A DNA stretch of 64,000 nt from a virus (IMGVR_UViG_3300023223_000669:64001-128000); one strand, 5' to 3'. Numbered from the stretch's first letter, positions 13,189-64,000 are shown. Notes: generated by a model from the letters alone, not told the origin. Numbers and translations: made by a program.

Positions 13189-13656
13189 ATGGCTTTATTG
13201 CAATCTCGACAGACGCAGCATACTAATATTGACTGCTCTGTTTCTGGTGTTGCTGAACGTGGTGGTATTCTATCTTTCGTTCCCGGTGTTGCTGGTCTCT
13301 GTGAATATGCGGATGCTACCGCTGTTTCGGGGGCATTATCCAACCCTGCTGGTCTATTGCTTGATGATGTAGAAGCTCTTAACTACTACAACCATCCTGA
13401 GTACCGTCAGCGTAACGTTGTTCCGCAAGGAAGCGTGGTTGGTATTGCTACCGAAGGTGAGTTCCTCACTGACATGGTTGAGACAGCAACGGCCGATGGA
13501 GCGTCTGTAGGTACCTATGTTCCTGGCGACGACTTGTTTTTGGCGGATGATGGCAACGTAAGTCGCCAGCAGATCGCTGCCTTGCGTCCTTCCGTTGGTA
13601 AAGCCCTTGCGGCCATTACTGCTGACGGCTTCCTCAAGATCCGCGTGGAACTATAA
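13189..13656 (+). CDS. Capsid decoration/cement protein
   Basis: 155 aa between scaffold and MCP with AAGGAGG RBS; GDDLFLADDG...VGKAL...GFLKIRVEL. Confidence 0.7.
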   Translation: MALLQSRQTQHTNIDCSVSGVAERGGILSFVPGVAGLCEYADATAVSGALSNPAGLLLDDVEALNYYNHPEYRQRNVVPQGSVVGIATEGEFLTDMVETATADGASVGTYVPGDDLFLADDGNVSRQQIAALRPSVGKALAAITADGFLKIRVEL

Positions 13657-13667
13657 GGAGACCTCAA

Positions 13668-14693
13668 ATGAATTATCAACGTTATCCGCAAGAAGCAATT
13701 GACGCCCTGCGTGCAACTGCTGCACCGGACTCTGATGTCCGTGCTCGTGCTCAAAAGGCTTTTGCCGCTGAGCTAAATTCGCCCCTTCGTCAAGGGGTTT
13801 TTGATCGTGACAACCTAGGTGGCATTTACGAGAAGCAAGTCCTTGCTCCTGGTGCTCAAGCCAACTACCCGCTCGACTTCGTAAAGCCGGGTGAAGAAGA
13901 TGAATTCATCGCCTTCACTTTGCCGAAGCAGGGTCGTGTGCCGGAACGTCACGTCGAAGGCGACGAGTTGTGGGTGCCGACATTCCAGATCGGCAACGCA
14001 ATCGACTGGTCGCTTAAGTATGCTAAGGAAGCTCGTTTCGACGTTATTATGCGTGCGATTCGTGTTTACGAGGCTGGTTTTGTTCGTAAGATTAACTCTG
14101 ATGGTTGGCGTACCCTGCTTGGTGCTGCTGATGGTCGTGGCCTCACGGTTTCGGCTACCGGTGCTGCTCCGTTCACGGGTTCCACGCTCGCCCCGACTCC
14201 TGCTGCTGGTCAGTTCACCAAAGAACTTATTAGCCGTATGAAGACCGCGATGACTCGTGGTGCGGGCGGTAATGGTAACGCTGGGCGTCTGACTGATGTT
14301 TACCTTAGCCTTGAGGCGATGGAAGACATTCGTGCGTGGGATGTAGACGAAATTGACGAGTTCACTCGTCGTGAAATCTTCGTTTCGCGTGAGTATGGTC
14401 TTGCCCAAATTTACGGCGTTGTTCTTCATGAGATGACCGAGCTTGGCGAAGGTCAGGAGTACGAGGAATTCCTCGAAGTTACTCTTGCCCGTGCCCACAC
14501 TGGTTCGCTCTTGGAGTACTGCATCGGTCTTGACCTGTCCACAATGGACAGCATGGTCATGCCGATCCGTGAAGAACTCCAGACTTTCGAAGACCCGGCT
14601 CTCTACAGAGAGCAACGTGCGGGCATCTTCGGCTGGATGGAGCACGGTTTCGCCGTACTTGATCCGCGTCGTATCCTGATTGGCGAATTCTAA
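13668..14693 (+). CDS. Major capsid protein
   Basis: 341 aa, AAGGAG RBS, biased codons, followed by terminator; VPTFQIG..IDWSLKYAKEARFD and GIFGWMEHGFAVLDPRRIL. Confidence 0.85.
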   Translation: MNYQRYPQEAIDALRATAAPDSDVRARAQKAFAAELNSPLRQGVFDRDNLGGIYEKQVLAPGAQANYPLDFVKPGEEDEFIAFTLPKQGRVPERHVEGDELWVPTFQIGNAIDWSLKYAKEARFDVIMRAIRVYEAGFVRKINSDGWRTLLGAADGRGLTVSATGAAPFTGSTLAPTPAAGQFTKELISRMKTAMTRGAGGNGNAGRLTDVYLSLEAMEDIRAWDVDEIDEFTRREIFVSREYGLAQIYGVVLHEMTELGEGQEYEEFLEVTLARAHTGSLLEYCIGLDLSTMDSMVMPIREELQTFEDPALYREQRAGIFGWMEHGFAVLDPRRILIGEF

Positions 14694-14717
14694 GCCGAAC
14701 AGCGACAGCTAGATCCT

Positions 14718-14755
14718 AAGGGGGCGGTAGGGTGTGAATCCTACTGCCCCCTTTG
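14718..14755 (+). terminator. Intrinsic terminator after MCP
   Basis: AAGGGGGCGGTAGG / CCTACTGCCCCCTT 14-bp stem (one G-U), short T run. Confidence 0.8.
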
Positions 14756-14756
14756 C

Positions 14757-14767
14757 TTAGTGTATTC
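14757..14767 (+). promoter_or_regulatory. Putative late promoter TTAGTGTATTC
   Basis: Motif abuts the terminator and would restart transcription for neck genes. Confidence 0.65.
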
Positions 14768-14810
14768 TTTAGTAGGTCTCACGCACAGGCACTTTAAACA
14801 GTAAATCATC

Positions 14811-16288: not shown

Positions 16289-16616
16289 AAACCCCCGTGG
16301 TATTCTGCATCTACATAGTTTTAGAATCCATGGACGCGAGACCAAGTACAAACCCTGTGACATTCCATTCGATCTTTACAACGCAAACAAAGACGCATTG
16401 GTCGATGGCACCTATCGAGAGATCACTCTTCGTGGTCTATTCGGTGTTACATTTCCTGAAATTGCTTTCACATATAACGAAATTCGTTGGCTTCCAGAAA
16501 GAACATTAGATACAATAGGCCCTCTCATGGTCGATCAGTATGATTCAACATGGTCTCATAAGAAAAAAACTGATCAAATCAAGGTAGCACTTCGCAATGT
16601 CTCTCCGTCCTCTTAG
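16272..16616 (+). CDS. Hypothetical protein, neck region
   Basis: GAGGT RBS 16259-16263, GTG start. Confidence 0.6.
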   Translation: MLVFCKNPRGILHLHSFRIHGRETKYKPCDIPFDLYNANKDALVDGTYREITLRGLFGVTFPEIAFTYNEIRWLPERTLDTIGPLMVDQYDSTWSHKKKTDQIKVALRNVSPSS

Positions 16617-19216: not shown

Positions 19217-20632
19217 ATGGCCATTAATAATAGAGTTTTCTGGGCGATCGAGCAAGTCGCCATTAAAGATAACGCTGCTCCGCCGACTGGGGCCGTCGCT
19301 CCTGTTAACTCTCGCGAGTATATTACAGGACCGCTTGCTTCTGGTGTCGATGAGGTAGCTGGACTATGGGAAGTTCCCCGTGGTCTTCAAAGTATTGGTA
19401 TTAGCACGACTTTCAACCTAGAACAAGTTTTCCAGCTTGGTCAGGTTGAGTTGTACGAGTACTCGGAACGTCAACCGGACATTGAGGTTACGCTGTCGAA
19501 AGCTATCGACGGTACGAAGCCTTTGTACTTCATGGTGACGGACCCGGCCTCGGCCAACGACATTGTTGCTCGTACCGCAAACTATCGTACAGACATCGCC
19601 CTACAAATTTATCCTGATACTCAGTTCCGTGCTACGGGTCAACCGCAAGCCATCGTAACTGCATCGGGTTGTTATGTTTCCAACCTGTCTTACACTTTCC
19701 CGATTGATGGGTTTGTGTCAGAAGACGTAACGCTGGTTGGTAACGACAAGATTTGGGGTGCGATGGTTGCTGTCTCTGGTCAGACGGCTGGGCATGACGG
19801 TGGACAAGGTGCTGGAGAGCCTCTTGTTCTCTTCCCGTCTGAAGACGATGGTGAAAACCCCAATGCTCCTGAGGGTACGCCCTCTGGTGTCTTCGGTCAT
19901 GATGGTAACACTTCTGCTCTGCTAGAGGGTGGTGCTGCTGAATTGGCCGGTGGTGCTGACCGCTTTGGCGTGATCATCGTTGGTTCTGGTGTTCAGCGTC
20001 GTGAAGAGGTTGATATTGCTCGCTCGATCCTGCCGATGGATGTTCCGGGTATTCTTACTCCGGTACAGTCGGGTATTGATGGTGCGTTCGTCAATGGTGG
20101 TTTTGGTGCTCAAGGGCCGGGAACGGCACTTAATACTGACCAGCTTGTTGCCGACGCTAATACGGACTTTGTTGCCGAGCACATCCAGACCATTACGGTT
20201 TCGTTCTCGGTGGCCCGTGAGGACATTTTCGAGCTTGGCTCGAAGCGTCCATTCGTCAAGACGCCTGACTTCCCGCTGGAAGCTACGTGCTCTATCGAAG
20301 TAATCACGGCTCAAGGTGACCTTGTTGATGCGACATCGGATCAAGATTGTGGACCGGACAATACGTCTGAATCCAATACAATCATCCTCCGTACTTGCGA
20401 CGGTCTACAAGTTGACCTTGGTGATGCTAACCGTCTGACGGGTGTTGAAATGGGTGGTGGTGAAGCTGGTGGCGACAATATGACTGTCACCTACAACTAC
20501 AGCTCCTTCAACGTCTTCAATGTTTCGCACGACTTCTACCAGCCGAACCACCGTATCCTGGTGTTCCAGACTGGTCTGAGTCGTTTCAACGTGGGTTCTG
20601 TAAGCTTCCTGCGTACTGATCTGGGTATCTAA
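19217..20632 (+). CDS. Major tail (tube) protein
   Basis: GGAGGT RBS, biased codons, own terminator; EQVFQLGQVELYE and REDIFELGSKRPF motifs; precedes chaperones and tape measure. Confidence 0.75.
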   Translation: MAINNRVFWAIEQVAIKDNAAPPTGAVAPVNSREYITGPLASGVDEVAGLWEVPRGLQSIGISTTFNLEQVFQLGQVELYEYSERQPDIEVTLSKAIDGTKPLYFMVTDPASANDIVARTANYRTDIALQIYPDTQFRATGQPQAIVTASGCYVSNLSYTFPIDGFVSEDVTLVGNDKIWGAMVAVSGQTAGHDGGQGAGEPLVLFPSEDDGENPNAPEGTPSGVFGHDGNTSALLEGGAAELAGGADRFGVIIVGSGVQRREEVDIARSILPMDVPGILTPVQSGIDGAFVNGGFGAQGPGTALNTDQLVADANTDFVAEHIQTITVSFSVAREDIFELGSKRPFVKTPDFPLEATCSIEVITAQGDLVDATSDQDCGPDNTSESNTIILRTCDGLQVDLGDANRLTGVEMGGGEAGGDNMTVTYNYSSFNVFNVSHDFYQPNHRILVFQTGLSRFNVGSVSFLRTDLGI

Positions 20633-23769: not shown

Positions 23770-24382
23770 AAAGGGCATTACAGGTAGACTGAATCGAGCG
23801 GTTAACTTTGTTTTAGTCGATCTTGATAAATGGATTAAGACAACATTCGTCAAGGCTCTTGTACATGGGGGCCTTGGTATTGAGGGTATCAGGGAGACTC
23901 CTTTCTACAAGTTTATCTCCAGTCCGGAGGGCCTAAGCCAGCTTGGCATTGAGCCTACGGAGCCGCCCAAGCTTTTGAAGGCGTACGAGCGTACTATTAA
24001 AGTATCTCGTAAAGGTCGTCAACTTATATTAAGATTCGGTGACGTAGCTTTGTTGAAGTTGGCAACTCCGCATCCGGCAAGGGGTACGGGCAACCTACAG
24101 GTTCAATCGTGGTTAGAGTGGATTGTTGACGACGTGAACGTTGGACGCGGTTTTGTTCCGCGTGAGCGTATACCTTCGGGGGCGGATAAAGCTATACGTC
24201 TTGGCCAACCTCTTGGTGGTTTGATGCTTCCTCGGGGAGCGTTGGGTAGTTCTGGCCTATGGCGATTTCCAGTCCAATTACAAGATTATGAACGTGCATG
24301 GTTGAAAGGCAATGTAAAGAGTATTGAACAAGCACTTCTAGCGAAGATGGTCGAATTACTAGTGAAGAGAGCCAATGGCTAA
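23732..24382 (+). CDS. Hypothetical tail-region protein
   Basis: 216-aa ORF overlapping both neighbours. Confidence 0.6.
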   Translation: MVIGWKLILKSPRKGITGRLNRAVNFVLVDLDKWIKTTFVKALVHGGLGIEGIRETPFYKFISSPEGLSQLGIEPTEPPKLLKAYERTIKVSRKGRQLILRFGDVALLKLATPHPARGTGNLQVQSWLEWIVDDVNVGRGFVPRERIPSGADKAIRLGQPLGGLMLPRGALGSSGLWRFPVQLQDYERAWLKGNVKSIEQALLAKMVELLVKRANG

Positions 24383-27300
24383 GATCCAACTAGAAGCTAT
24401 TCTAAAGCTGGTTGACGTACAGATCAATCCTGCTGTGTTCCGCAAAATCAGCCAGGCTGTTGCGGGCATGCCTGCTTCATTGGGTAAGACCAACGTGCAG
24501 CTTAGGAAAGCTAGCACGAGTACTAAGGCTCTAAATCGTAACCTTCAGAAAACAAAGCAAACACTTTCGAATAACGAACGTGCGGCCCGTCTGTTCTTGC
24601 AGCGTATGGCCCAGTTTGCAATTCTGCTTCCAACGTTCGCCACTCTTAACCGTGCCATTCAGGGTAGTGTTAAATTCCTGTTTGAGTTCGATAGTGCTCT
24701 GCGAGATATTATCCGAATTGATATCTCTGGTTTGTCAGACCGCATGGAAGAGGTTGGTGATGCAGCCCTACGAACTGCGGTTAATTTTGGAGTAACCGCT
24801 ACTGAAGTTCTAGGCGTTACTCGTATTTTCAAGCAAGCTGGCTTTACGATTGAAGAATCTCAGGCCAAGGCTGAAGCGGCTATTTTAGCGACTCAAATTT
24901 CGACGCTTTCGTCTGCCCAAGCGGTTGAGGTTTTCATTGCGGCCGCCAAGCAGTTCGGTGCTGAAGGCGAGAATGCGGTTGAAGTGCTGGATCGTCTAGC
25001 GAGGGTTGAAGACCTTGCTGCCGTCAATGCCTCTGATGTGGCCGACGCCTTTAGAACCGGTGGTAACGCTCTTGCTGAATTCTCTGGTAGTATTGATGAT
25101 TCGATTGGTCTGATCGCCGCCTTGAGAGAGCAAAGTCGTAAGTCTGGTAGAGAAATTGGTACGTTCTTCAAGACTATTCAAACGCGTGTGTTTGCCGTTG
25201 GTGAAGCTCGTTCTGCTGTTGAAGCTCTTGGTATTCAAATTGAAAATCTTAATGGTACATTGCGTCCAACCTTGGATGTCTTCAATGATTTGAAGAAACG
25301 ATTTGATGGTTTGACTCAAGCACAGCGGACTAACGCCGCTAAAGGGATTGCTGGTATCCGTCAGTTTGAATCTCTCTTGGCCGTTTTGAATTCGCTTGAT
25401 AGGGCAAATGAACTGGCTGCGGCATCGTCTAAGGCCGCTGGTACCGCCGAAGAGAAGCGTTTGATTACGGACGCTAAACTTGAGCGTCAGCTTGGTAAGT
25501 TGATTGCCCAAGGTCAGGCTCTTGCGGAAGCCCTTGGTGATGCTGGTTTGGAAGATAGTCTTGCTGGCGTTTTGAAAATTGCTACGGGTCTCCTCTTTAT
25601 ATTCACGAGGCTGGTAGATGTTATTGGTGATATTGGCGGTAGCCTTGTTCCCCTATTGGCTCTTGGCGGTATCACGCTTGGTCGTAGTGTCTTTGGTTTG
25701 GCTGCGGCCGGTGCGGGCAAATTGGGAGGTAAAGTTGGTGGAACCGCTGGTACTACGCCGGTAGGTGGCGGTGCTCAACCTGGCCGGGTGGATCCGTTCA
25801 CCGGGGTACTCGCACGATCAATCACTAAAACTGCAAGCAAGGTAGAGAGTTTTGGCAAAACGATGACCCGTGTCAAGGATATTACAATAGCGGGTGCGAA
25901 AGCGACACAAGCACAAGTTACGAAGACGATTGCGGCCGGTCGAATTCAAGGCACGGGGTTTGTTGCTGCTATCGCTGCACGACGACAAAATACTAATGCG
26001 GTCAGAGAGAACATTGCTGCGTTAAAGGCTTCTAATGCGGCTCGCCTTGCAGAGAGGAAAGGCAAAGGTTTATTTGGCGGCGGTGTTGGTGGTACTGTTG
26101 CTTTGACCCTGCTTGGTACCGCCCTCCCGGCAGCCCTTACTGGTGTTGTCGCACAATTGCGTAAGGTTGATGGCCTTCTTGCTCAGACCAGTGCTAGTAT
26201 TCTTGATGTCAGTAAGAATGGTCTTGGACTTGCTGCTCAATTTGCCATTCTTGGCGGTAAAGCTTCTGCTGTTGCTGGAGCGTTTGGTATTGTACAATCG
26301 GCTGCGATAATTCTTATTGATTCTTTCAAGGATGAGGCGGCGGCCCGCGATGAACTGCGTGAGGGTATTAAAAATCAAAATAAAGAGATAGAGGCTCGTG
26401 CTAAGTTAGCTTCTAAAACTGATGTAGGCGAAGATTTTACAGCAAATCTTTTTGATGTTATTGCCCGTGGTGTTCGTGGTCGTGAAACTGGAGCTGAGAT
26501 GGTTGCTGGCCAGCAACAAATTTTTGCAGAACTTGGTAGGCAGATTGGAGCGACGGGAGAGCAAGCTGCTAAGATTTTCTTGGAGAAAGCAACTGCCGAA
26601 ATTAGTAAAGCAGATTTGAGTCCTGAGAAGTTGGGATTTGGTGGTCTTGTTAAACTTGCTGTTGAACTTCAAAGCGGCAATTTCTCTGGTCTTGCTGACC
26701 AGACTGTATCATCTACTCGTGGTCTTAGCAAACTTGTTGGTGAACTTAAAAAAGGCGAAGCTGGTTTTGTTGCCAATGTCAGGGCTCAGAAAGATCTACT
26801 GAGGGCTCGTGCTGAAGAAAATGGCACGTTAATAGAAGCGGAACAACTTATTGCTCGGGTTGAGGCAGGTACTATTTCTGGTCTTGGAGCTTTCTCCGCT
26901 CTTAAATCGATTTTAGATGATACGACTCGTGCTACGAATGCCGCCACTGGGGCTTTTGAGATCGTTGAAATATCCTTTAAACAATTTGAAAAGGTACAAA
27001 AAATTCGTGGTTTTGCAGATAGTATTCGTACATTAGGATTCGAATTGGAGTTGGCTAAACTTGGTCCTGATGCATTGTCTGATTCTCTTGTTCGTCTGAC
27101 ACAAAAGTTCTTGTTGACTGAACGTGAATCTACAAACGCTATCGATCGTCTGACAGACGAGATGAATGTTCTATTCCAGAATTTAGGAAGTGAGTTTACA
27201 GTGGGCCTCAATCCCGCTGGCGTATCTGCGGCTGAATTCTTTCAAGTTATCAAGGATGGTGTTGCAGGTATTGACGTTGACAAAGTGAAGAAATTTGAAG

Positions 27301-29813
27301 ATCTTATTTTTAATCCGGATCCAACAGCATTTTCAAAACTTGAAAAAGCACAACAGGCAGGTGCTCTTAAGATTCTGAGAAATCTTAAAGCACGAATGCA
27401 GGAAGAACTTAAGATCACGGATGCAGGAAACGCACTTCAGAAAGAGCAGAGTTCTCAACGTAAAACTTTGCTGGAATCAGAAGCTAGGTCTGCTCAGGAT
27501 GCTTTTGCTGCTACTGCAATGTTCAATGCGGAATTGGTCAAGTTTGGTAATACTGTCAATACTCAGGTTTTGGCTGCCTTCCAAAATATTGGTTTGGCTG
27601 ACGTAGAGACCGTATTGGCTGGTGGTGAGTCTGAGCTTAGTGAGGCGGTGCAGAATTTGATCCGTAATGCGTTTGCTGATCCTGTGGCGAAAGCTCAGGT
27701 GGAACTACAAGCCGTGACAGCTAGTACCGAAGCTGAGTTACGTATTTTGGCTAGAGAGCTAGCTATGGTGGAAGAGAGCTTGGCAAGTGAAGCCGTTGCT
27801 GCCCAGAGAACTACTTTAGCGTCTCAGAAGCGTGCTATTGAATTGAAAATCGAAACGACTAAACAGGAAGGTGCGATTAGTGCCACCGATGCTAAGATTA
27901 AAGTTTTGGAGTCTGAACAAGAAGCAGCGGAAGACGCTATTGAAGCAGAAAAGAAACATGCTGATCTGCTAGAGAAATTAGCTGATGCCTCTCGTGCTTT
28001 TGCTCAAGAGCTTAAAGATGTCGAGCGTGCTTTCCAGGAGTTCTCTGAGGAAAAGATTGCTGATCTATTAGGCGACGAAACCGATGCTCGTAATGATCTC
28101 AAAGAAGCTCAACAAGGGGTTTTGGAATCAACGGCCGCCGTTGCTGATGCATATGACAATCTCATTAGAGCCCAACTAGAATTCAATGGTGCCATGGCTG
28201 AGGCTCAAATCAAGAGCAATCAGTTAGCACGCGATATTGCTATTCTGACAGGGGAAATCTTCACGTTTGATGGCCGACTTGCGTCTCTTGGTAATGCGTT
28301 TAGAGATGTGCTCAGTAAGTCGAACATCACGCTAGAGAAACGTATTGATCTGGAGCGTCAGCTTGCAGAGGAAACGCTATCCTTCTTGCAGCAGGCCAAG
28401 GAAGAGATCATTGGTGCTGGCTTGGGTATCTTTGGCCAGACAGGTGCAGAGAATCAAGCTCTTGGTCAGGGTATCGCTGGCCTACAGCTAGTAGCAGACA
28501 CATTGGGCGGATCGTTTGAAGCATTCTTGAACCTAACCCAAGGTGAACTATCTAGTGTCACAGAGAATCTACTAGCCCTTCCTGCTGAGTTCAGACAGCA
28601 GATTCTTGCTGCTCTGTCATTCTTGCCTAGTACAGTCAGTGTCGGTGGCTTCAGTCCTGAGCAATTGCGAGAGGCTATTGGCCAAGTTGGTGCTGGTGTG
28701 GCTCCTGAAGAGGGTCTACCGTCTATCGAAGAACTCAATAGTCAACAGGTTGAGCAACTGACTAAACTACAAGAGCTTGCGATTCAGGATGCTCAATTAC
28801 AGTTTGCTCAGGTACTTGCTGCCCAAGCACAACTGGCTGCGGCAGAAGAAGCAGCCGAAGCCGCAAAGCTACTAGAAGAACGTGCGACAGAAAATCTGGT
28901 GGCTGTGCGTGATGCTGTTCTTGAAGAGAAAGTCATTCTGGATCTTGCTAATCAACAGCGTGTTGAATTATTGAATGCGGTCATTGCGGCAGACGATAAG
29001 AACACGTTGCTTCAAATCGAAAGAGAGGCTCAATTGTTCGCAGAACAAAATGCTACATTCAGGGATATTGGTGATAACATTGTGCGTGGTATCGCTTCTG
29101 CCATCTCTGGGCGTCTTGCCGTTATCGAAGCTGCGGCCAATGTGAACAATGCATTTGCAGGACATATTCCTAATTTGTCTGGTGGCAGTTTGACGCCCAG
29201 AGAAGCCGCGTCTCTACTACGTGCTGGTGCTCGTGAAAAGCGAGCTATGCCTGGTGGAGCCGGTTTGGCCGTGGCCAACACCAGCGAAGCCATCATCCCG
29301 ATGCGGGCTGGGGGTTTCATGCCTAATTTCCAGGAGGGCACCAGTGAAATCTCTGCTGGCATCTCTGCTGTTAAGAATATCAATGAAACAGTGGTTGCTG
29401 CCATTGCTCGCTCTGTGACTGCGGCTTTGGCTGATCTACAAACCGGTGGTGCTGACACGGCAGAACTTTTGACAGAAGTTATAGCACAGCTCAGCTCTTT
29501 GAACAATACTAATGAGGACATCAAAGCCAGCAATGATACTGTAGCATCTAATACACAATCTGTGGATGCTGGTGGTACCGGTGGTGCAACAGGCGGTGCC
29601 CAAAGAGTGGAGATCACATTGCAGACCAACCAGAACAACCGTGTCAGTGTAACGGGCCTAGAGAACCTGAGAGCAGAACTAGAGGCGGCCGTGATGGAAA
29701 CAACAGCTCGCCAGGTGGATGATCAAGTATCTGCACTTTTCCAGCAGCTCGAAGACGTGGTACTCTCGCTTCAAGAGCGTGGCATGCTAACATCATTCGG
29801 TCAAACGAGGTAA
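24375..29813 (+). CDS. Tape measure protein, TP901-type core
   Basis: 1812 aa, Ala/Gly/Leu helical; FDSALRDI...FKQAGF...AILATQISTLS..AV...GREIGTFFKTI. Confidence 0.9.
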   Translation: MAKIQLEAILKLVDVQINPAVFRKISQAVAGMPASLGKTNVQLRKASTSTKALNRNLQKTKQTLSNNERAARLFLQRMAQFAILLPTFATLNRAIQGSVKFLFEFDSALRDIIRIDISGLSDRMEEVGDAALRTAVNFGVTATEVLGVTRIFKQAGFTIEESQAKAEAAILATQISTLSSAQAVEVFIAAAKQFGAEGENAVEVLDRLARVEDLAAVNASDVADAFRTGGNALAEFSGSIDDSIGLIAALREQSRKSGREIGTFFKTIQTRVFAVGEARSAVEALGIQIENLNGTLRPTLDVFNDLKKRFDGLTQAQRTNAAKGIAGIRQFESLLAVLNSLDRANELAAASSKAAGTAEEKRLITDAKLERQLGKLIAQGQALAEALGDAGLEDSLAGVLKIATGLLFIFTRLVDVIGDIGGSLVPLLALGGITLGRSVFGLAAAGAGKLGGKVGGTAGTTPVGGGAQPGRVDPFTGVLARSITKTASKVESFGKTMTRVKDITIAGAKATQAQVTKTIAAGRIQGTGFVAAIAARRQNTNAVRENIAALKASNAARLAERKGKGLFGGGVGGTVALTLLGTALPAALTGVVAQLRKVDGLLAQTSASILDVSKNGLGLAAQFAILGGKASAVAGAFGIVQSAAIILIDSFKDEAAARDELREGIKNQNKEIEARAKLASKTDVGEDFTANLFDVIARGVRGRETGAEMVAGQQQIFAELGRQIGATGEQAAKIFLEKATAEISKADLSPEKLGFGGLVKLAVELQSGNFSGLADQTVSSTRGLSKLVGELKKGEAGFVANVRAQKDLLRARAEENGTLIEAEQLIARVEAGTISGLGAFSALKSILDDTTRATNAATGAFEIVEISFKQFEKVQKIRGFADSIRTLGFELELAKLGPDALSDSLVRLTQKFLLTERESTNAIDRLTDEMNVLFQNLGSEFTVGLNPAGVSAAEFFQVIKDGVAGIDVDKVKKFEDLIFNPDPTAFSKLEKAQQAGALKILRNLKARMQEELKITDAGNALQKEQSSQRKTLLESEARSAQDAFAATAMFNAELVKFGNTVNTQVLAAFQNIGLADVETVLAGGESELSEAVQNLIRNAFADPVAKAQVELQAVTASTEAELRILARELAMVEESLASEAVAAQRTTLASQKRAIELKIETTKQEGAISATDAKIKVLESEQEAAEDAIEAEKKHADLLEKLADASRAFAQELKDVERAFQEFSEEKIADLLGDETDARNDLKEAQQGVLESTAAVADAYDNLIRAQLEFNGAMAEAQIKSNQLARDIAILTGEIFTFDGRLASLGNAFRDVLSKSNITLEKRIDLERQLAEETLSFLQQAKEEIIGAGLGIFGQTGAENQALGQGIAGLQLVADTLGGSFEAFLNLTQGELSSVTENLLALPAEFRQQILAALSFLPSTVSVGGFSPEQLREAIGQVGAGVAPEEGLPSIEELNSQQVEQLTKLQELAIQDAQLQFAQVLAAQAQLAAAEEAAEAAKLLEERATENLVAVRDAVLEEKVILDLANQQRVELLNAVIAADDKNTLLQIEREAQLFAEQNATFRDIGDNIVRGIASAISGRLAVIEAAANVNNAFAGHIPNLSGGSLTPREAASLLRAGAREKRAMPGGAGLAVANTSEAIIPMRAGGFMPNFQEGTSEISAGISAVKNINETVVAAIARSVTAALADLQTGGADTAELLTEVIAQLSSLNNTNEDIKASNDTVASNTQSVDAGGTGGATGGAQRVEITLQTNQNNRVSVTGLENLRAELEAAVMETTARQVDDQVSALFQQLEDVVLSLQERGMLTSFGQTR

Positions 29814-29816: not shown

Positions 29817-31319
29817 ATGAACGTACTATCTGAAGTCCCGAGACCGCCCTTGGCAGCAGTTGTTGTTCAATACAACGGCTGTGTGCTAACGCCCGCACCG
29901 CTGATTGATTGGACAGTAGAGCCCCAGTTTAGTGGTAGTGGTACGCGTCTTGCGGATCTCAACCGTCTGACGCTGACGGGTACGATTCTTGTATCACCCT
30001 CGGGTAGTTATGAGCAGATGTATGTTAAGCAGGAAGAACTGCGTACCGCATTCTCTGTTGACGAAAAAGACTTTGTTATTCTGGCTGGTCCTGCCAATAA
30101 GAGCCTAGCCGAAGGGACTGTTATCTGTTCTGGTTTGAAACCAAAGGTCACCAGTCTCAATATTCCGGCAGACACTCAGTTCATTCGTATTGACTACACG
30201 ATTGAGCTGGAAGACCTAGTTGCTGCCTCTGGTGTCACGAACGTTACATCTAGCCTAACTGATCAATGGTCGTTCACGGAAGATCCTGATTCCTGCACAG
30301 TCAATGTTTCCCACCAAGTTAGTGCTGAAGGTGTCGATGGAGAAACGGATAAGTTTGAACAGGCCCGACGTGCCGTTAAATCCCGTCTTGGCATTGACAA
30401 GCTTCCACTCAGTATCCCATGCTTTGTGGAGCCGAACGCATCGGGCCTATTCGGATTTACTCATCCAGCAGTAGCCGGTGGCGGGCCCATTTTCGAAGTA
30501 TCGGTTCAACGTGAAGAAGTAGCTGATGTTGTCAATGGTACCTATTCTGCTACTGAAATATTCACTATTGTTAGTGGTGTACCATTCTTCTTCACACAAC
30601 GCACGGAAGCATTTGAAGAAGGTGAGGATGGTGTAGCTAACGTTACGATTGCCGGGACGGTACAGGGGCTTGGTCGTACGGTACCCGATTTTCCACTTGG
30701 GGGAGTTGGTTTTGAACGTGCTTGTTCTGGGTTCGTCAATACTGTGCGTCCACAGTTACAGTGGGACGCCTCTGGTGTATATGAAAAATACAAACAGGGT
30801 GTTTCTATTAGTGGTTTGGCCCTGTCGAAACCTACGGCATTCTCTACTACACAAAACGTATGTCGTGGCACAATAGATTTTTCTATTACATTTACTGATG
30901 ACCTAACAGCTCATTTACCCAGTGGTATTGTAAACAGATCATGTAGTGTTGCAACCATAGAGGGTATCCGACTGTTTGCAAGCCACGCAATTCCATTCAG
31001 ACGACTTGGTAATATTGTTCAAGATATTAAGACATCAACAGAGGGCTCTATTTCCATTGTGTGTCAGGCACAGGCTAGAAGTACTGGCGACAACGCAGCA
31101 GACACCAATCGTGCTATCCAGTTTGTTCAAGATGAAATCAATAGGCTCAAGAATCAACATGCTAATCCCGCTGATTTTGTGACTTTGCGTATTGCCAATC
31201 TGAACCAACAGTTTAGTGATACTGATCTTACTAGTGCGGTTACACTTGATTTTGCCTTTACAGTCGATCTGGCAGCCGTGCCGAACGAGACTTCTGATAT
31301 TTCCCTGAGGACACTATAA
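29817..31319 (+). CDS. Tail tip (distal-tail-like) protein
   Basis: First gene after tape measure; beta-rich. Confidence 0.55.
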   Translation: MNVLSEVPRPPLAAVVVQYNGCVLTPAPLIDWTVEPQFSGSGTRLADLNRLTLTGTILVSPSGSYEQMYVKQEELRTAFSVDEKDFVILAGPANKSLAEGTVICSGLKPKVTSLNIPADTQFIRIDYTIELEDLVAASGVTNVTSSLTDQWSFTEDPDSCTVNVSHQVSAEGVDGETDKFEQARRAVKSRLGIDKLPLSIPCFVEPNASGLFGFTHPAVAGGGPIFEVSVQREEVADVVNGTYSATEIFTIVSGVPFFFTQRTEAFEEGEDGVANVTIAGTVQGLGRTVPDFPLGGVGFERACSGFVNTVRPQLQWDASGVYEKYKQGVSISGLALSKPTAFSTTQNVCRGTIDFSITFTDDLTAHLPSGIVNRSCSVATIEGIRLFASHAIPFRRLGNIVQDIKTSTEGSISIVCQAQARSTGDNAADTNRAIQFVQDEINRLKNQHANPADFVTLRIANLNQQFSDTDLTSAVTLDFAFTVDLAAVPNETSDISLRTL

Positions 31320-45236: not shown

Positions 45237-45587
45237 ATGGAACGTAAGTGCTATGCCTGTCAAGACAGAAAGCCGCTTGAGGCTTTCGAAAAAGACAGTG
45301 CCAAGAAAGACGGTAGACGCTATCTCTGTAAAGAGTGTGGGAAAATTCGTGCTAGAGAACGACATCTTCGTATAAGTTACAATCTCTCTGAAGAAGATGT
45401 GCAAGAAATAAAACACACTCAGGGCGGCCGTTGTAAATTATGTAATCGGAAACGGAAATTGTGCATCGATCACGACCATGAGTCTGGTCGGGTGCGTGGA
45501 CTTTTGTGTTATCGGTGTAATCGTTCTTTAGGATGTTTGGGGATACCGAAAAGAGCTACAGCGTGTAGTATTCTATTTACAAGGTAG
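45237..45587 (+). CDS. Free-standing endonuclease VII-like homing endonuclease
   Basis: Zinc finger; SYNLSEED..Q.GRCKLC..LCIDHDHESGRVRGLLCYRCNRSLG. Confidence 0.85.
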   Translation: MERKCYACQDRKPLEAFEKDSAKKDGRRYLCKECGKIRARERHLRISYNLSEEDVQEIKHTQGGRCKLCNRKRKLCIDHDHESGRVRGLLCYRCNRSLGCLGIPKRATACSILFTR

Positions 45588-57446: not shown

Positions 57447-59248
57447 ATGAGAAAAAGCGTGTATTGTTTATAGGTGAAGCCAGCAATTTGAGTACTGGCT
57501 TCTCGACCATTTATCGAGAACTATTACCTCGACTGGCAGCTACGGGTAAGTATGAAATCGCAGAGTTCGGATCATATGTTCGCCAAGATGATCCCAAGGT
57601 CCAAGAGTTTATTCAAGGACGCTGGAAGTTCTACGGTGTCATGCCCCTCACCCAGCAAGAAGGACAGGTTTTCAATCAGCCCAGCCCACACCCTAGGGCA
57701 AAGGGACTGAATACCAACCAGTTTGGCGAGTACAAGTTCAATCATGTTGTTGCCGATTTCAAGCCTGATATTGTCATCGATATTCGTGATTGGTGGATGT
57801 TAGAGTATCAAGAGCGAAGCGTGTTTCGTCCATTCTATAAATGGATTGTTATGCCTACTGTTGATGCTGAACCCCAGGCAGAGGAATGGATTCAAACCTA
57901 CGAAAATGCAGAAATGGTTTTGGCCTATTCTGACTATGGTGTTCATGCTCTGCGTCGTCAGAGTCAGTTGACTACCGGGGGACGCCGTAAGATGCGTGTG
58001 TTCCCGAAGGCCATGCGTCCTGGAGTTGATTTGGCTACATTTAAACCAATGGACAAGGCAGAGATTCGTGAACATTGGAATCTCTCTAAAGACAATCCGG
58101 TTATTGGCACGGTTATGCGTAATCAAAGCCGTAAGTTGTACCCTGATTTGATCGATGGTTTCGCTCGCATGCGAGAGAAGTATAAGGGCAATGAAGCGGT
58201 AGACAAGGCTGTTCTTTTGATTCATTCTTCGTGGCCAGATAATCAACATTCATTTGATTATCCGAGACACATTATGCGTCTTGAGTCTTATCCATGGATG
58301 CAGCATGCACAAAAAGGTATTCGAGGCAGCATTCTCCAGACGATCCACTGTCATACATGCAATGAGCCCTCTGTTGCGTTTGCCATGAGCCTGTGGGGTA
58401 AGCCTATCGAAGAAGGTAGAGTCAAGTTGCCATGTCCTCACTGTGGTAAGGTTGATGCTTCACCGCCGAATACTGCCATGGGTTTTTCACGCGAAGATCT
58501 TGCTAAACTGTATAACCTGATGGATCTCTATGTGCAATGTTCCATCTGTGAGGGTGACGGCATGCCCATTCAAGAGGCGAAAGCCTGTGGAGTGCCGACG
58601 CTAGCTACAGACTACACGGCCATGCGTGAGAAAGGAAGATTCCCCGACTACTCGCACTTTGAGGAGCTTGGTTATACTTCTCAGACGTACACTTGTCATA
58701 AGGGCGGCGAAGTGATTGATGTTGGTCGTTATTACTATGAGCCAGAGACCAGTTGTATGCGTGCTCACCCTGATATTGAAGACTTAGCCGACAAGATGTT
58801 TGCCATGATTAGCAATCAGGAGAAGCTGGATAGTCTTGGTGTAGAGGCCCGTACATGTGCCGAAGACAACTATGATTGGAATGTGCTTTGGAAACAATGG
58901 GAGTATGTTCTAGATAACGTTAAAATAAAGGATCGTTTGCAGACGTGGGATAGTCCCATCGCTGAGCACGAAGATATTGCTGCTGTGCCCGTGCCTGCTG
59001 CACTCAGCGATGAGCAATATGTTGAATGGCTCTATCTCAATGTTCTCAAATATCCCTCAGTTGATCCCGAGGGGGCAAAGGTTTGGGTACAGCATCTTGG
59101 ACTTGGTGTAACTCGCGAACAGATCATGCAACAGTTTGTAGCAATTGGTAATCAACAGTCCGATGGTAGCAAGATGCGTGATCAGATTCGTCAACAGGTG
59201 GCTGGTCTTACTATAAATCTACCGAAGCCCAAGCAGGAGTTCGTATAA
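57443..59248 (+). CDS. GT4 glycosyltransferase with zinc-ribbon insert and C-terminal DUF4214-like domain
   Basis: STGFSTIYRELL, IGTVMRNQSRK, LYNLMDLYVQCSICEGDGMPIQEAKACGVP; CHTC..CPHC; YVEWLYLNVL..DPEG..W..GVTREQIMQQF. Confidence 0.82.
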   Translation: MNEKKRVLFIGEASNLSTGFSTIYRELLPRLAATGKYEIAEFGSYVRQDDPKVQEFIQGRWKFYGVMPLTQQEGQVFNQPSPHPRAKGLNTNQFGEYKFNHVVADFKPDIVIDIRDWWMLEYQERSVFRPFYKWIVMPTVDAEPQAEEWIQTYENAEMVLAYSDYGVHALRRQSQLTTGGRRKMRVFPKAMRPGVDLATFKPMDKAEIREHWNLSKDNPVIGTVMRNQSRKLYPDLIDGFARMREKYKGNEAVDKAVLLIHSSWPDNQHSFDYPRHIMRLESYPWMQHAQKGIRGSILQTIHCHTCNEPSVAFAMSLWGKPIEEGRVKLPCPHCGKVDASPPNTAMGFSREDLAKLYNLMDLYVQCSICEGDGMPIQEAKACGVPTLATDYTAMREKGRFPDYSHFEELGYTSQTYTCHKGGEVIDVGRYYYEPETSCMRAHPDIEDLADKMFAMISNQEKLDSLGVEARTCAEDNYDWNVLWKQWEYVLDNVKIKDRLQTWDSPIAEHEDIAAVPVPAALSDEQYVEWLYLNVLKYPSVDPEGAKVWVQHLGLGVTREQIMQQFVAIGNQQSDGSKMRDQIRQQVAGLTINLPKPKQEFV

Positions 59249-60498
59249 TGAAATTACTTTTTGTTGGTCCTCTTTTGGATTTTTCCGGCTTTGCTACGGC
59301 TTCACGTCGCTTCTTACAAGCACTCAACGAGAGCGACCTTGACTTGACGGCCCGTCCTCTACGGTATGATAAGTTGGATGATGGACAAGAGTTCACTCCG
59401 CCGGAATGGCTCGCCTCCCTTTTGAAGAATGATCTTCAAGGGGTTGATATGGCCCTTCAAATGACGACATCGAATACCGAGGCCGTCCCCGTGCCTGGTA
59501 TTTTGAATGGTCTGTATACCTTCTTTGAGACTGATCGTCTGCAACCTTTGTGGGCACAGAAGGCGAACGAGTTTGACTTCATCATTGTACCCTCGCGAAG
59601 CAATGGTGAGACGTTGCTCCGTTCGGGAGTGAATAAGCCTATTTTGTGTGCTGGCCCCCCTTGTGACATAGATGATTTCCAACGTGAACGTCAGCCGTTC
59701 GTCATTGAGCAGGCTGGTGACAGAACGATCTTCTATAATATTTGTCAGTTGAGTGCCAAGAAAGGGATTGATGTTTTGCTACGTGCTTACTATGCCGCAT
59801 TTGTCGGGGCACCCGATGAAGTGTTGCTTGTTCTCAAGACATATGTCAATATGGAGAACCGTCAGCAAGATGAAGAGATTGTTAAGCAGTATATCCAGAA
59901 TATCAAGCAACGTTGTCGTATTCCGGTTCCCCAACATCCTCCCGTGTTGCCATTAGTATATACCATGACGGACGATGAGATCCACGGTTTACATGTTGCT
60001 GGCCATGCGTACGTTTGCTCTAGTCGAGCAGAAGGATGGGGACTTCCCGTGTTTGATGCTTTGGCTCACGGTAAGACGGTCATCACCCACAATGCTGGTG
60101 GCTTGGCAGACTTCGTAACCCCAGAGAATTCGCTGCTCTATCAAGGCATGCCAACGTTCTTCTTTGATATGCCGCATCCTGATCCTGGTCTTTTTACTGG
60201 TGTTGAACAGTGCTTCGAGCCTTCGCCAGCACACTTAGCCCTCAATATGCGTAGGTTCCATCTACTCAGACGTGGTGCTGATGCTGGCGAGCTTGACGAA
60301 ACAATGCAGGCCGAATGGGCATCTGTACTGACGCGTCGTGAAAATGCTAAGCTTGTTGGCCAGAAGTTTGATTACCGTGCTATTGGTAAGCGTATTGTTG
60401 GTCAGCTAGAATCACTATTCGCCTCATGGAAAGAAACTGGTACAGCTATCTACACTCCGACAAATGATGAGAAACCTTCTCTGGAGGATTCGCTATGA
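59248..60498 (+). CDS. GT4 glycosyltransferase
   Basis: SGFATASRR, KKGIDVLLRAY, EVLLVLKT, YVCSSRAEGWGLPVFDALAHGK. Confidence 0.88.
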   Translation: MKLLFVGPLLDFSGFATASRRFLQALNESDLDLTARPLRYDKLDDGQEFTPPEWLASLLKNDLQGVDMALQMTTSNTEAVPVPGILNGLYTFFETDRLQPLWAQKANEFDFIIVPSRSNGETLLRSGVNKPILCAGPPCDIDDFQRERQPFVIEQAGDRTIFYNICQLSAKKGIDVLLRAYYAAFVGAPDEVLLVLKTYVNMENRQQDEEIVKQYIQNIKQRCRIPVPQHPPVLPLVYTMTDDEIHGLHVAGHAYVCSSRAEGWGLPVFDALAHGKTVITHNAGGLADFVTPENSLLYQGMPTFFFDMPHPDPGLFTGVEQCFEPSPAHLALNMRRFHLLRRGADAGELDETMQAEWASVLTRRENAKLVGQKFDYRAIGKRIVGQLESLFASWKETGTAIYTPTNDEKPSLEDSL

Positions 60499-61634
60499 AC
60501 CAACAGCAAATCTATTACGAGCCGCAGATGCAATCGATTGCGGAGCGTGTCAATCAGCCGCCGCGTATTGTACAATGTATCCAAATGCACAACGAGGAGC
60601 AATTTGCCCCGTTGGTGCTGGCATCTATCTATGATGAGGTAGATCGTATTATTGTGATCGAGGGTGCCGTTGAGAACCGTCCGAACGCAACACAAGATGG
60701 ACACTCCACCGACAATACGTTGTCGGTGATTAAGAAATTCAAAGAAGAAAATGATCCAGACAATAAGATCCTGCTGGTCTCTATCCCCAAGTTTTGGAAA
60801 AACCTGGAGGAAATGAAACAGGTATTCCTTGATATGAGTATTCCGGGCGACTGGATCTTGATCAATGATGCAGACGAATTTTATAAGCCGTCTGATATCA
60901 GACGACTTAGGAAAGCTATTGAGCTTGAGCCGCACGCCTGCGAGTTTGTTCCGAACTTCCTGCACTTCTATCGTGACTGCTGGCATGTGGCCGTTCCTGG
61001 TCCCGAGTGGCAACCACAACATCAGCGGGTATTCAAATATGTACGCGGCATGATATACAATAGTCATCCGGTCGTTACTGACCCTGCGGGACATTGCACA
61101 TATTTCTCACCACATTATCAACAGCGTAGGGTAATGCTTAATGATTTCTTTATTTACCACTATGGTTATGCCCGTTCCAATATGGACGAAATCATGAGGG
61201 CGAAACAAGAATATTACAAGGGTGAGCTTGCGAAGCACGATGGGGCCGACAAGAAGTTTGATCAGAAAGTCAAGGACTGGTTTGATGGTACGGAACCACT
61301 ACTGAGGTTCGATGGAGAACATCCTCAAATCATTCAGGATCATTATCATGTGGCAAATAAGGTTGTGCCCAGAAATGTTCCTACCCTATGGCGGGACGAT
61401 CCTTTTTATAGTAAGGTGCTCAGGAATGAGCCCTATGGAAATATTTATTTGTGTATGACGCAGCAAGCAACGCCGCACATGCAACTGTATCACAACGGTA
61501 TGACTATTGAAAATGGTCTTGAAACAGAAGGCGATGTTCCTGTGGTACAGATGTCGATGGAAGAATATAAACAGGCCCTACAGTCTGGTGGCCTAGAAGG
61601 TTTTGGCTGTGGTAACCCCGCAGTCTCATGTTAG
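60495..61634 (+). CDS. GT2 glycosyltransferase, beta-1,4-glucosyltransferase-like
   Basis: MHNEEQF, DRIIVIEG, DWILINDADEFY, IYHYGY. Confidence 0.82.
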   Translation: MNQQQIYYEPQMQSIAERVNQPPRIVQCIQMHNEEQFAPLVLASIYDEVDRIIVIEGAVENRPNATQDGHSTDNTLSVIKKFKEENDPDNKILLVSIPKFWKNLEEMKQVFLDMSIPGDWILINDADEFYKPSDIRRLRKAIELEPHACEFVPNFLHFYRDCWHVAVPGPEWQPQHQRVFKYVRGMIYNSHPVVTDPAGHCTYFSPHYQQRRVMLNDFFIYHYGYARSNMDEIMRAKQEYYKGELAKHDGADKKFDQKVKDWFDGTEPLLRFDGEHPQIIQDHYHVANKVVPRNVPTLWRDDPFYSKVLRNEPYGNIYLCMTQQATPHMQLYHNGMTIENGLETEGDVPVVQMSMEEYKQALQSGGLEGFGCGNPAVSC

Positions 61635-61644
61635 GAGAAAAATT

Positions 61645-62019
61645 ATGAGTTTTGCAACAGATTATATAACAGCGTATAGATTACTACGTCATGGCGACGT
61701 TCCCGACGATATTGGCAGAGCCTTAGGCTATGAAGACAAAGATATTCTGCTTCGTCTACGTGCCCGCTTTGGTCGTGTGAGTCTTCGTGAGGCGGTTGAT
61801 AAAAGTCGAGTTCGAATTTTTGGTCGCATTAAAGCTGCTATTTATGCTGTTAAGATGGTCAAAGAAATGAGACGACAAAAAGTTCTGATTACCAATATGC
61901 TTGGTCTTGAACAAGAGCCTGATGGCATTAGAGAGATTCATAAAAAATCCATCAATTTATTCCCTATTACGGTGCATCGCACAGTAGTTCAAATGCGTGA
62001 ACCCAAGGAAGATGCCTAG
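61645..62019 (+). CDS. Hypothetical protein
   Basis: AGGAG RBS, ATG 61645 in frame with ORF 61603..62019. Confidence 0.6.
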   Translation: MSFATDYITAYRLLRHGDVPDDIGRALGYEDKDILLRLRARFGRVSLREAVDKSRVRIFGRIKAAIYAVKMVKEMRRQKVLITNMLGLEQEPDGIREIHKKSINLFPITVHRTVVQMREPKEDA

Positions 62020-62872
62020 ACTCAGTTACTTGGTTTCAACTTATGATTCTGGCCAATTTCTAGACGGTCACATTGCCGATCTCATTGACCATCAAACAGA
62101 TGGAGACTTTGAGATCGTAATAGTTAACCCGGCTTCGCCGGGCATTGATGGCCTCATTGCTGAGAAGTGGGCTCACGCGGATCCCCGCGTGAAGTATATC
62201 TACCATCACGAGAGAGAACCGTATGGAACCTCCTGGCTGCGAGCATGGCGAGCAGCCAGGGCTCCACTCGTGATGAACTCTAACACCGACGATTTCCATG
62301 AGCCCCGTACGACTGAATTAGTCCATAAGCACATGCGTCTGGCAACCAGCCCGATGCATACAGGTTCTAAGATCGGCTTTGGCTATGGTGGTATCACTGT
62401 GACAGACGCGAAGGTTCGTGCGACAGGAAGAGGCTTAAAACCTCCATTCAATTTTGAGGTCATGTCGTATGAGTGTCACGCTGGCCCGCAGGTTATCTGG
62501 CGAAACGACAAGCAATTCATTGATGATCTTGACTGGAATCTGATGCAAGAGCGTAGTGAGAGCTACAAGTCGGCATTTGACTACTGGCTTTGGCTGTACT
62601 TCATGAGTAAGGGGTATCGTGGCTATGTGATTCCTGAGTATCTTACGATTTACCGGCAACGTCCCGATTCTATTGAGAATCGAAATAAATGGGCTAATAA
62701 TTGGGAAACTTATGCTGCCATCAGTGAGTTTTTCGGTCATAATTTCGATGGCAAATTGACACATGCACAGGAGTTTAGGGATTTCGACGCTCTACCTCCG
62801 CGAGACGCATGGGTTGCTACAATGCAAGCAGGCGAACAATGGGAAAAATCAGAGATAGATGGTATAGGTTAG
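61997..62872 (+). CDS. GT2 glycosyltransferase
   Basis: LSYLVSTYDSGQFL, FEIVIVN, DPRVKYI, MNSNTDD, AFDYWLWL. Confidence 0.85.
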   Translation: MNPRKMPRLSYLVSTYDSGQFLDGHIADLIDHQTDGDFEIVIVNPASPGIDGLIAEKWAHADPRVKYIYHHEREPYGTSWLRAWRAARAPLVMNSNTDDFHEPRTTELVHKHMRLATSPMHTGSKIGFGYGGITVTDAKVRATGRGLKPPFNFEVMSYECHAGPQVIWRNDKQFIDDLDWNLMQERSESYKSAFDYWLWLYFMSKGYRGYVIPEYLTIYRQRPDSIENRNKWANNWETYAAISEFFGHNFDGKLTHAQEFRDFDALPPRDAWVATMQAGEQWEKSEIDGIG

Positions 62873-63300
62873 TTGCTGGCGGTCTTTTGCAGGCCAAGAA
62901 GCGTTTAGCTACTAAATTAGCTAGACAGATTGAGATTACAGCAGAACATGCAGCCCAATGGAGGATTGTCCAGAGACAATTCATCGCCCTGAAAGATGAT
63001 ATGAAAAAGATCCTTGCAGACAGAGACGATCAAATCGTTATTCTGAAAGAACATGTTAAGGCTGCCAAAGAGGGTCGAACAGATGACGTTGAGACAGCCA
63101 AGGACATTATCCGTGAACGCATGGGTATGGATCCAGACGCTCCTGGTAAGATGGACATATTACGAAAGCAGCTTCGCCAAGAGTGTGCCTATGTGATGTA
63201 TCTAGAAGACAATCTTGAGGATGGATTGACAGAGTTTAATGACATACCGAAAGAAGAACGTAAAGTCTATTTTGAGCGTGTAGATGAGCGGGCACGATGA
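62809..63300 (+). CDS. Hypothetical coiled-coil protein (start uncertain)
   Basis: Fills the gap; ATGA overlap with the next gene. Confidence 0.55.
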   Translation: MGCYNASRRTMGKIRDRWYRLVAGGLLQAKKRLATKLARQIEITAEHAAQWRIVQRQFIALKDDMKKILADRDDQIVILKEHVKAAKEGRTDDVETAKDIIRERMGMDPDAPGKMDILRKQLRQECAYVMYLEDNLEDGLTEFNDIPKEERKVYFERVDERAR

Positions 63301-63665
63301 GCAAACAACGTATTGTGTCGCAGTCTTGGGGACGTGAGCGAGTCTTAGAAGAGAATGACAAGTATGTCCTTAAGATATTGGAAGTCGATCCTGGTCATCG
63401 ACTGAGCCTGCAATTCCATGACCGTCAAAGACTTACATTGTATTGTCTTTACGGTCATGGGACGCTCTTTTTGACCAACGACCAACACGATAGCGAAAGA
63501 TCCCTGCTGCCGGGGCGTTACGAAACAATCGAACCCGGCACCATCCACAGTCTTGAATCATCAGGAACGGCCCCCTGTATTGTGATGCAGATTTCGTGTG
63601 CAACAGCAAACGACACCACCATCTTAGACGTTGGCAGGTTCCTCGACCCCTTTAGCAATGATTAA
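63297..63665 (+). CDS. Cupin, mannose-6-phosphate-isomerase-like
   Basis: SWG..RVL..KILEVDPGHRLSLQFH...IEPGTIHSL. Confidence 0.75.
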   Translation: MSKQRIVSQSWGRERVLEENDKYVLKILEVDPGHRLSLQFHDRQRLTLYCLYGHGTLFLTNDQHDSERSLLPGRYETIEPGTIHSLESSGTAPCIVMQISCATANDTTILDVGRFLDPFSND

Positions 63666-64000
63666 AATATTACATTATCTCCGTAACCTCGGATTAGGTG
63701 GTACGGAAAAGACTTGCCAGTTGTTTTTTGAGCACGCGAGCAGTGATTTTGAAGTTACGGTTATACATGAAGAAAGTGGTGACTATACACGTATAGAGGA
63801 ATTTAATAAAGCCGCCAGGGTTAGTAAAGGATTGGTGCATGCTATTGATTCCTATGGGAGCAACCCACGACTGAAAGGTGACCCTGATCCAGCCCCTCTA
63901 CAAGAGGTTATCGACACTTTAAAGCCCGATATTTTACATGTCTATCGTAGCGGTTATAGCGAATTTCCGGCCAATTGCGTATATGTACCGCATACTGTTG
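63658..64000 (+). CDS. GT4-like glycosyltransferase, N-terminal part truncated by the window edge
   Basis: ATG 63658; MIKILHYLRNLGLGGTEKT...LKPDILHV; frame stays open to the edge. Confidence 0.7.
   Translation, partial: MIKILHYLRNLGLGGTEKTCQLFFEHASSDFEVTVIHEESGDYTRIEEFNKAARVSKGLVHAIDSYGSNPRLKGDPDPAPLQEVIDTLKPDILHVYRSGYSEFPANCVYVPHTV

Follow-up and report, generated by a model that had tools for sequence, protein, structure and literature searches.

Serine-glycine motifs in the tail proteins of a large uncultured phage that encodes a predicted soluble glycosyltransferase apparatus

We examined a stretch of viral DNA of 64,000 nucleotides (IMGVR_UViG_3300023223_000669:64001-128000, hereafter the window), which comprises positions 64001-128000 of the complete genome of an uncultured phage (genome G000; 183,100 bp with direct terminal repeats, 47% GC content). 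Every gene of the window lies on the plus strand. Two glycosyltransferase (GT) genes immediately precede the terminase and structural block in the same orientation, and the main cluster of GT genes follows the gene for DnaE (Table 1). A first-pass annotation had proposed that a phage pathway builds O-linked glycans on serine-glycine (S-G) dipeptides of exposed tail, neck and decoration proteins. Our analysis shows that the motif is real, and so is a GT apparatus that we predict to be soluble, while the causal link between the two is hypothetical. The extension of the proposal to decoration proteins is unsupported, because the major capsid protein (MCP) contains no S-G.

Serine-glycine excess in tail and neck proteins

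The hand counts of S-G made in the first-pass annotation all proved exact on recount, for nine surface proteins (38 S-G vs 9 G-S in the 1622-aa fibre; S-G per length in aa of 11/500, 7/238, 6/220, 4/184, 16/1126, 11/702, 6/341 and 6/471 in the others) as for five controls (DnaE, 3/1102; DnaB, 1/485; the large terminase subunit TerL, 2/682; the tape measure protein, 8/1812; MCP, 0/341). Taken together, 13 tail and neck proteins (6284 aa) hold 114 S-G where 48.8 are expected, an observed-to-expected ratio (O/E) of 2.34 (z 9.3) that makes S-G the sole outlier among the 400 dipeptides, the runner-up having a z of 3.6. Over 5000 within-protein shuffles the mean number of S-G was 48.7 (sd 6.4) and the maximum 70. 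S-G O/E in the remaining proteins of the window is 0.86.

The full motif spans four residues, [A/P/G/V]-S-G-[I/V/L]. The preceding residue is A, P, G or V in 68% of S-G vs 29% of other x-G pairs, and the following residue is I, V or L in 54% vs 18% (Fisher p 8e-14), so that the context given in the first-pass annotation, small residue-S-G-hydrophobic, holds. The translation and Tandem Repeats Finder (TRF) also agree with its description of a 14-aa repeat array in the fibre in which nine of ten units begin with S-G. These units are Gly-rich and hydrophobic, of the type S-G-I-x-G-G-F-I-x-G-x-D-x-G, and their copy number differs among 94 fibre orthologues, some units being gapped in 10-30 sequences. 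A DNA-level cause of the S-G excess was rejected: the Ser and Gly codons are ordinary and no hexamer dominates. Because codon use is ordinary, the signal lies at the protein level.

We compared S-G with the polar-Gly pairs as a class. The O/E of [S/T/N/D]-Gly is 1.31 in the window's tail proteins, 1.28 in the 94 fibre orthologues, 1.30 in cellular proteins with the laminin G-type (LamG) domain LamG_3 and 1.28 in T4-like fibre loci. The Ser share of these pairs is 52% (29% expected) in the window and 55% (32% expected) in the orthologues vs 30% and 25%, both as expected, in the two control sets, and T-G O/E is 0.73 and 0.58 vs 1.02 and 1.15. N-G (0.82-1.07) and D-G (0.98-1.08) in the clade also lie below the controls (1.27-1.36 and 1.46-1.70). 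In the tail and fibre proteins of the clade, polar-Gly turns are therefore about as numerous as elsewhere, but Ser fills them in place of Thr, Asn and Asp. Because the controls share the total [S/T/N/D]-Gly excess without the Ser shift, plain beta-turn bias, an objection that the first-pass annotation had raised against its own proposal, is not the whole cause.

Within the 13 proteins, general beta-turn bias was rejected as the whole cause on the further ground that T-G (0.73), N-G (0.82), D-G (1.08), A-G (1.05) and G-S are not enriched. A general property of phage tails was rejected too, T4 tail proteins having an S-G O/E of 1.05 and 32 T4-like long-fibre loci a mean of 1.29 (maximum 1.70). 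LamG domain content accounts for a baseline of 1.3x only and was rejected as the source of the excess: in 32 cellular LamG_3 segments S-G O/E is 1.31 and the top pair is D-G (1.70), and the residues that follow S-G in cellular LamG_3 (PF13385) are T, L, S and N, unlike the I, V and L found here.

Two more fibre-like proteins lie outside the window (genome 160771-163357) and share an N-terminal motif with each other; they hold 7 S-G vs 1.9 expected and 14 vs 6.8, and a weak BclA_C-like domain closes the second. In four close relatives (among loci L001-L005) the tape measure protein is S-G-depleted (2-5 vs 8-10.5 expected), while the window's own is neutral. In some distant sub-lineages (loci L056, L060, L063, L070-L075, L080, L082 and L096) the tail region is enriched in both S-G (1.5-1.8) and T-G (1.2-1.9), unlike the Ser-only pattern of the window's clade.

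Table 1. Features of the window, in window coordinates; expected values are for the S-G dipeptide
Feature	Position	Strand	Evidence
CgeB-like GT, directly upstream of packaging/structural block	143-1087	+	Pfam PF13524 Glyco_trans_1_2, E 7e-24, 84.8 bits
GT2 glycosyltransferase	1370-2173	+	PF00535, E 3.5e-8
Major capsid protein	13668-14693	+	S-G 0 vs 1.1 expected; 28% to Bacillus phage G major head protein, 45-47% to relatives
Conserved neck or tail protein, 341 aa	17714-18739	+	S-G 6 vs 1.3 expected; enriched in most of 16 relatives; no match in Pfam or PHROG
Putative tail tube protein, 471 aa (name from the first-pass annotation)	19217-20632	+	S-G 6 vs 3.5 expected
Tape measure-like protein, 1812 aa, internal control	24375-29813	+	S-G 8 vs 8.9 expected; hydrophobic segments
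Distal-tail (Dit)-like protein, 500 aa, tube-fold beta domains	29817-31319	+	S-G 11 vs 3.1 expected; AlphaFold2 (AF2) model
Two small tail-tip proteins, 184 and 220 aa	31319-32708	+	S-G 4 vs 1.2 and 6 vs 2.4 expected
Fibre, 1622 aa: LamG-like domains, 14-aa repeat array, PKD domain	34061-38929	+	Pfam Laminin_G_3, PKD; S-G 38 vs 14.8 expected
Ten Gly-rich 14-aa repeat units, nine starting with S-G	37814-38233	+	Translation; TRF period 42 at 37824-38205
Three more fibre/tail proteins, 1126, 702 and 238 aa	38933-45235	+	S-G 16 vs 9.1, 11 vs 6.2 and 7 vs 2.6 expected
Endonuclease VII gene, 3' of tail module	45237-45587		
GT4, 601 aa, C-terminal DUF4214, core gene of phage group	57443-59248	+	PF00534, PF13946
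GT4, 416 aa, second core GT	59248-60498	+	PF00534
Two GT2 glycosyltransferases (379 and 291 aa), 138-aa open reading frame (ORF) between	60495-62872	+	PF00535, E 6e-5 and 1.5e-11
Mannose-6-phosphate-isomerase-like cupin	63297-63665	+	PF01050, E 2e-9
5' part of 376-aa GT4	63631-64000	+	Full ORF matches PF00534 and PF13692

Conservation and structural setting of the motif

The phage is nearly without cultured kin. The sole match of its MCP is the Bacillus phage G major head protein, TerL matches Bacillus siphoviruses and Microcystis phage MaeS at about 24%, and sequence searches found no cultured relatives for the fibre, the tube protein, the Dit-like protein or the core GT. Searches of PHROGs gave no result for ten tail proteins, and searches of PDB sequences found no informative homologue. 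IMG/VR holds 22 close relatives (57-80% identity over the 500-aa Dit-like protein) and at least 74 more distant contigs, from phages of 120-230 kb, that share this protein. A 157,945-bp NCBI contig labelled as a Hydrogenophaga metagenome-assembled genome (MAG) carries a fibre orthologue at 44% identity (P0167); the label either points to the host or results from faulty binning. The nearest cellular kin of the phage's ribonucleotide reductase (genome 153199-155091), at 33-38% identity, are MAGs of Nitrososphaerales, Micrarchaeota, Bipolaricaulota and Elusimicrobia.

Close relatives retain S-G in 89.5% of alignment cells, compared with 43% for other serines. The 94 fibre orthologues, all full-length and with a mean identity of 44%, conserve the Ser of S-G at 91% and its Gly at 96%, compared with 71% for Trp, 60% for other Gly and 30% for other Ser. 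Thirteen of the 38 fibre S-G sites are invariant across the alignment, and 31 of the 42 near-invariant fibre serines belong to S-G. At nine of these 31 sites the codon switches between the TCN and AGY families, and therefore Ser itself is selected. Elsewhere in the tail, the S-G sites of the two small tail-tip proteins are conserved at 92-100%, and the putative tail tube protein, whose family-wide orthologues have 31-35% identity, keeps six of six S-G in three close relatives. The Dit-like protein has 538 homologues, and two of its sites only are widely S-G among the distant ones.

We placed the sites on two AF2 models. The Dit-like protein is modelled as beta domains at a mean predicted local distance difference test score (pLDDT) of 86, and Foldseek finds a weak likeness to SPP1 Dit, the T5 tail tip and tube folds (E 0.007-0.03). 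Seven to eight of its 11 S-G sites occupy hairpin loops or directly precede strands, two are in a helix and one is in a disordered loop. For fibre residues 1-620 (pLDDT 70) the model puts S-G at hairpin loops, strand ends and helix caps, and the consensus sequence of the fibre shows LamG-type domain starts. The models thus place one motif across different folds and secondary-structure settings.

Glycosyltransferases and the sugar island

The complete genome encodes 12-13 GTs, about four of them CgeB-like (PF13524). With Pfam family membership judged by gathering score, six of the seven GTs named in the first-pass annotation lie above the cut-off and the seventh is the 5' part of the 376-aa GT4 at 63631; its sugar-isomerase-like cupin also stood, matching the C-terminal domain of mannose-6-phosphate isomerase. 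The genes belong to a glycosylation island of about 26 kb, which runs about 19 kb past the end of the window. Beyond that end the island encodes one GT4, two clear and one weaker CgeB-like GT (in genome coordinates, PF13524 matches at 135056-136030 with 104.3 bits, at 133063-133974 with 42.6 bits and at 143235-144155 below the cut-off) and further GT2s, together with three methyltransferases (one TylF-like), a PRK-family kinase, a class II aldolase, a double nucleotidyltransferase and an epimerase/dehydratase. The island is interrupted by two HNH_3 endonuclease genes (L135:5644-6075 and L135:7628-8059).

Judged from the encoded proteins, the apparatus is wholly soluble, and nothing in it points to DNA or an exported polysaccharide as its target. 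No ORF at genome positions 121443-147336 or 64143-66173 contains a 19-residue hydrophobic segment. The island holds no membrane initiating transferase, flippase or polymerase of Wzx/Wzy- or ABC-type export, though host parts could substitute. As for DNA glycosylation by the T-even hmC, TET/5hmC or hmU routes, neither PF00303 (thymidylate synthase family, the hydroxymethylase type) nor PF00145 (C5 methylase) has a match in the complete genome; PF12851 (TET/JBP) has none either, a weak negative since this profile matched nowhere in the control. The complete genome also lacks a match to the GT9 heptosyltransferase profile PF01075, which matched in four control genomes, and to GT14/Branch (PF02485).

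Two of the GTs are shared beyond the clade. The 601-aa GT4-DUF4214 has orthologues at 34-36% identity in all four distant genomes (G014, G018, G023 and G025); the 416-aa GT4 has full-length, adjacent orthologues in G025 and G018 (24-25%) and partial, non-adjacent ones in G023 and G014. The larger protein is core to a broad uncultured group of 120-230 kb phages, is fused into proteins of 935-966 aa in some members, and is encoded beside DnaE rather than beside tail genes.

Acceptor site or structural cap

We tentatively favour, at somewhat less than an even chance and only by a small margin over an unmodified structural cap, the reading that S-G serines are acceptors of O-glycans added by the phage. 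Ser would be selected at polar-Gly turns and caps, giving the motif [A/P/G/V]-S-G-[I/V/L]; its hydroxyl would be used chemically, as the acceptor of an O-linked sugar; the sugars would be attached in the cytoplasm by the phage's soluble GTs; and the clade-specific island of about 26 kb would extend and methylate the glycan. Three points here are inferred: the presence of glycans on any virion protein, the choice of S-G as their site, and the identity of the GT that would start the chain.

Parts of such a pathway resemble known systems. Freeman et al. 2023, as cited in PMC12619734, place glycans on the C-terminal tails of capsid and tail-tube subunits in mycobacteriophages of the Che8, Corndog and Myrna type. 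GTs encoded by those phages presumably modify their own virion proteins, and here some GT genes adjoin the structural block. The mycobacteriophage system has few GTs, however, whereas here more than 100 internal S-G candidate sites in the tail tip and fibre stand beside 12-13 GTs and sugar-nucleotide synthesis. TibC adds heptose in the cytoplasm to Ser and not Thr, one of its sites being N-S-G-G (PMC4358343). Ser-specific hyperglycosylation of a repetitive, beta-rich surface protein, as by the bacterial autotransporter heptosyltransferases TibC and AAH on TibA and AIDA-I, is a cytoplasmic precedent, but the TibC/AAH enzyme is a GT9-type, iron-binding dodecamer of another sugar pathway, the type for which PF01075 found no match in the phage. 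The PF13524 family was founded on CgeB of Bacillus subtilis, a putative soluble enzyme. Modelling and a weak in vitro assay led to the proposal that CgeB glycosylates a Thr in an exposed loop of CgeA, a spore-crust protein of an assembled surface shell (PMC13577073). The CgeB-like phage GTs resemble it at the family level only, with no equivalog match, and the CgeA site is a Thr outside any S-G motif.

As in animal proteoglycan xylosylation, the candidate acceptor here is a Ser followed by Gly. The proteoglycan sequon has acidic flanks, whereas those found here are A/P/G/V and I/V/L, and the GT14/Branch enzyme type had no match. On chlorovirus capsids and mimivirus fibrils, in eukaryotic hosts, glycans are N-linked at unusual sequons or their sites are undefined. 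By description, the phage island resembles those of giant viruses in being a large virus-encoded, host-independent soluble pathway with sugar-nucleotide synthesis and sugar methyltransferases.

Several observations weigh against glycosylation at S-G. The mycobacteriophage glycans sit on capsid and tube, whereas here, at the sequence level, MCP has no S-G and the putative tube protein has six. No GT matches a known protein O-glycosyltransferase at the equivalog level, the NCBIfam matches being generic GT ones only. S-G that is lost becomes N-G, A-G or D-G more often than T-G, distant homologues of the Dit-like protein have mostly D-G, G-G, T-G or N-G in the same columns, and site-by-site invariance would be unusual for a decorative glycan. 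GT content also fails to follow the motif. Across 17 near-complete genomes, nine of which have S-G as their top dipeptide genome-wide, none of 1634 gene families, GT or other, tracks the S-G index; the best p value (0.003) belongs to a mobile endonuclease VII family scattered among the relatives and is not meaningful, and total GT count correlates weakly with the index (rho 0.30, p 0.24). Genome G018 has eight GTs and the GT4 pair and almost no S-G excess, and G025 also has almost none, yet keeps the GT4 pair. Conversely, G023, with three GT4 and no GT2, encodes two giant proteins with 97 S-G vs 37 expected and 59 vs 27. The bearer of the 97 is a 4411-aa protein with an FG-GAP repeat (L117:944-14179). 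The island, moreover, is mostly specific to the clade, while S-G-rich fibres occur outside it as well. In most genomes a mild S-G richness marks the tube, neck and Dit-like proteins but not MCP, portal, TerL, DnaE or the GTs. GT4 genes are present in 45 of 48 related contigs, the other three being 32-55% complete, and because all reasonably complete relatives carry GTs, no GT-free control exists.

A bolder form of the proposal, which we consider unlikely as a whole, is that the uncultured 120-230 kb group hyperglycosylates its tail tips and fibres on small-S-G-hydrophobic sites, with the GT4 pair (601 and 416 aa) starting the chain and lineage-specific islands elaborating it.

The strongest alternative, a serious possibility that we rank second, is that S-G is an unmodified serine cap or ST-turn followed by a left-handed Gly, before a beta-strand or at a helix end, and fixed in the lineage's tail modules. 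The GTs would then serve another acceptor, either a host envelope glycan reached through host lipid carriers and exporters or other virion sites. Most S-G in the two AF2 models do lie at hairpin loops, before strands or at helix ends; Ser gives way to residues that readily form turns (Asn, Asp, Ala and Gly), and the corresponding columns of distant homologues have D-G, G-G or N-G. Fibres and LamG proteins generally have an S-G excess of about 1.3x, and D-E-G-S-G-T and S-G-N-G-N of cellular LamG_3 resemble the start of the fibre. Site-by-site invariance fits a fold requirement, and the lack of covariation between S-G and GTs is what a cap without sugars would give. A cap, however, does not account for the displacement of Thr, Asn and Asp by Ser in this clade alone at equal total polar-Gly, nor does it explain why a cap residue outranks Trp in conservation or why one linear motif recurs in unrelated folds and settings.

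Chemical stability would account for part of the same swap, but it is an improbable explanation of the whole. N-G deamidates and D-G isomerises quickly, so that Ser in place of Asn or Asp before Gly would make S-G a stable polar turn for long-lived virions, and both the low N-G and D-G ratios of the clade relative to the controls and the confinement of the shift to extracellular virion parts agree with this. The reading is weakened because T-G is stable and yet the most depleted pair (0.58-0.73 vs 1.02-1.15); D-G, besides, is not under-represented in absolute terms, and the exposed MCP has no such shift. Slightly less probable still is another modification of Ser, such as phosphorylation, acylation or a cross-link, introduced by an enzyme of the host or by a phage enzyme that escaped recognition, with the GTs unrelated, for it draws on Ser-specificity and strong conservation only, no candidate enzyme was seen, the profiling linked no family to S-G richness, and it would give the abundant GTs no acceptor.

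Phage virion glycosylation is known so far from only a few mycobacteriophages, without a defined acceptor motif. If S-G serines are acceptors, the sites would be predictable from sequence alone, and a group-wide small-S-G-hydrophobic sequon, if true, would be the first sequon-defined phage protein glycosylation, each virion protein set offering more than 100 sites. The Ser share among [S/T/N/D]-Gly pairs is a simple statistic that could be screened across viromes. Even if the serines are unmodified, a Ser more conserved than Trp and the clade-wide replacement of Thr, Asn and Asp by Ser at polar-Gly turns, which current knowledge leaves unexplained, matter for fibre folds. Should glycosylation at S-G prove true, it would give a function to many unexplained GT genes of large environmental phages, and, by coating receptor-binding fibres, the glycans would have consequences for host range, stability, and defence or immune recognition.

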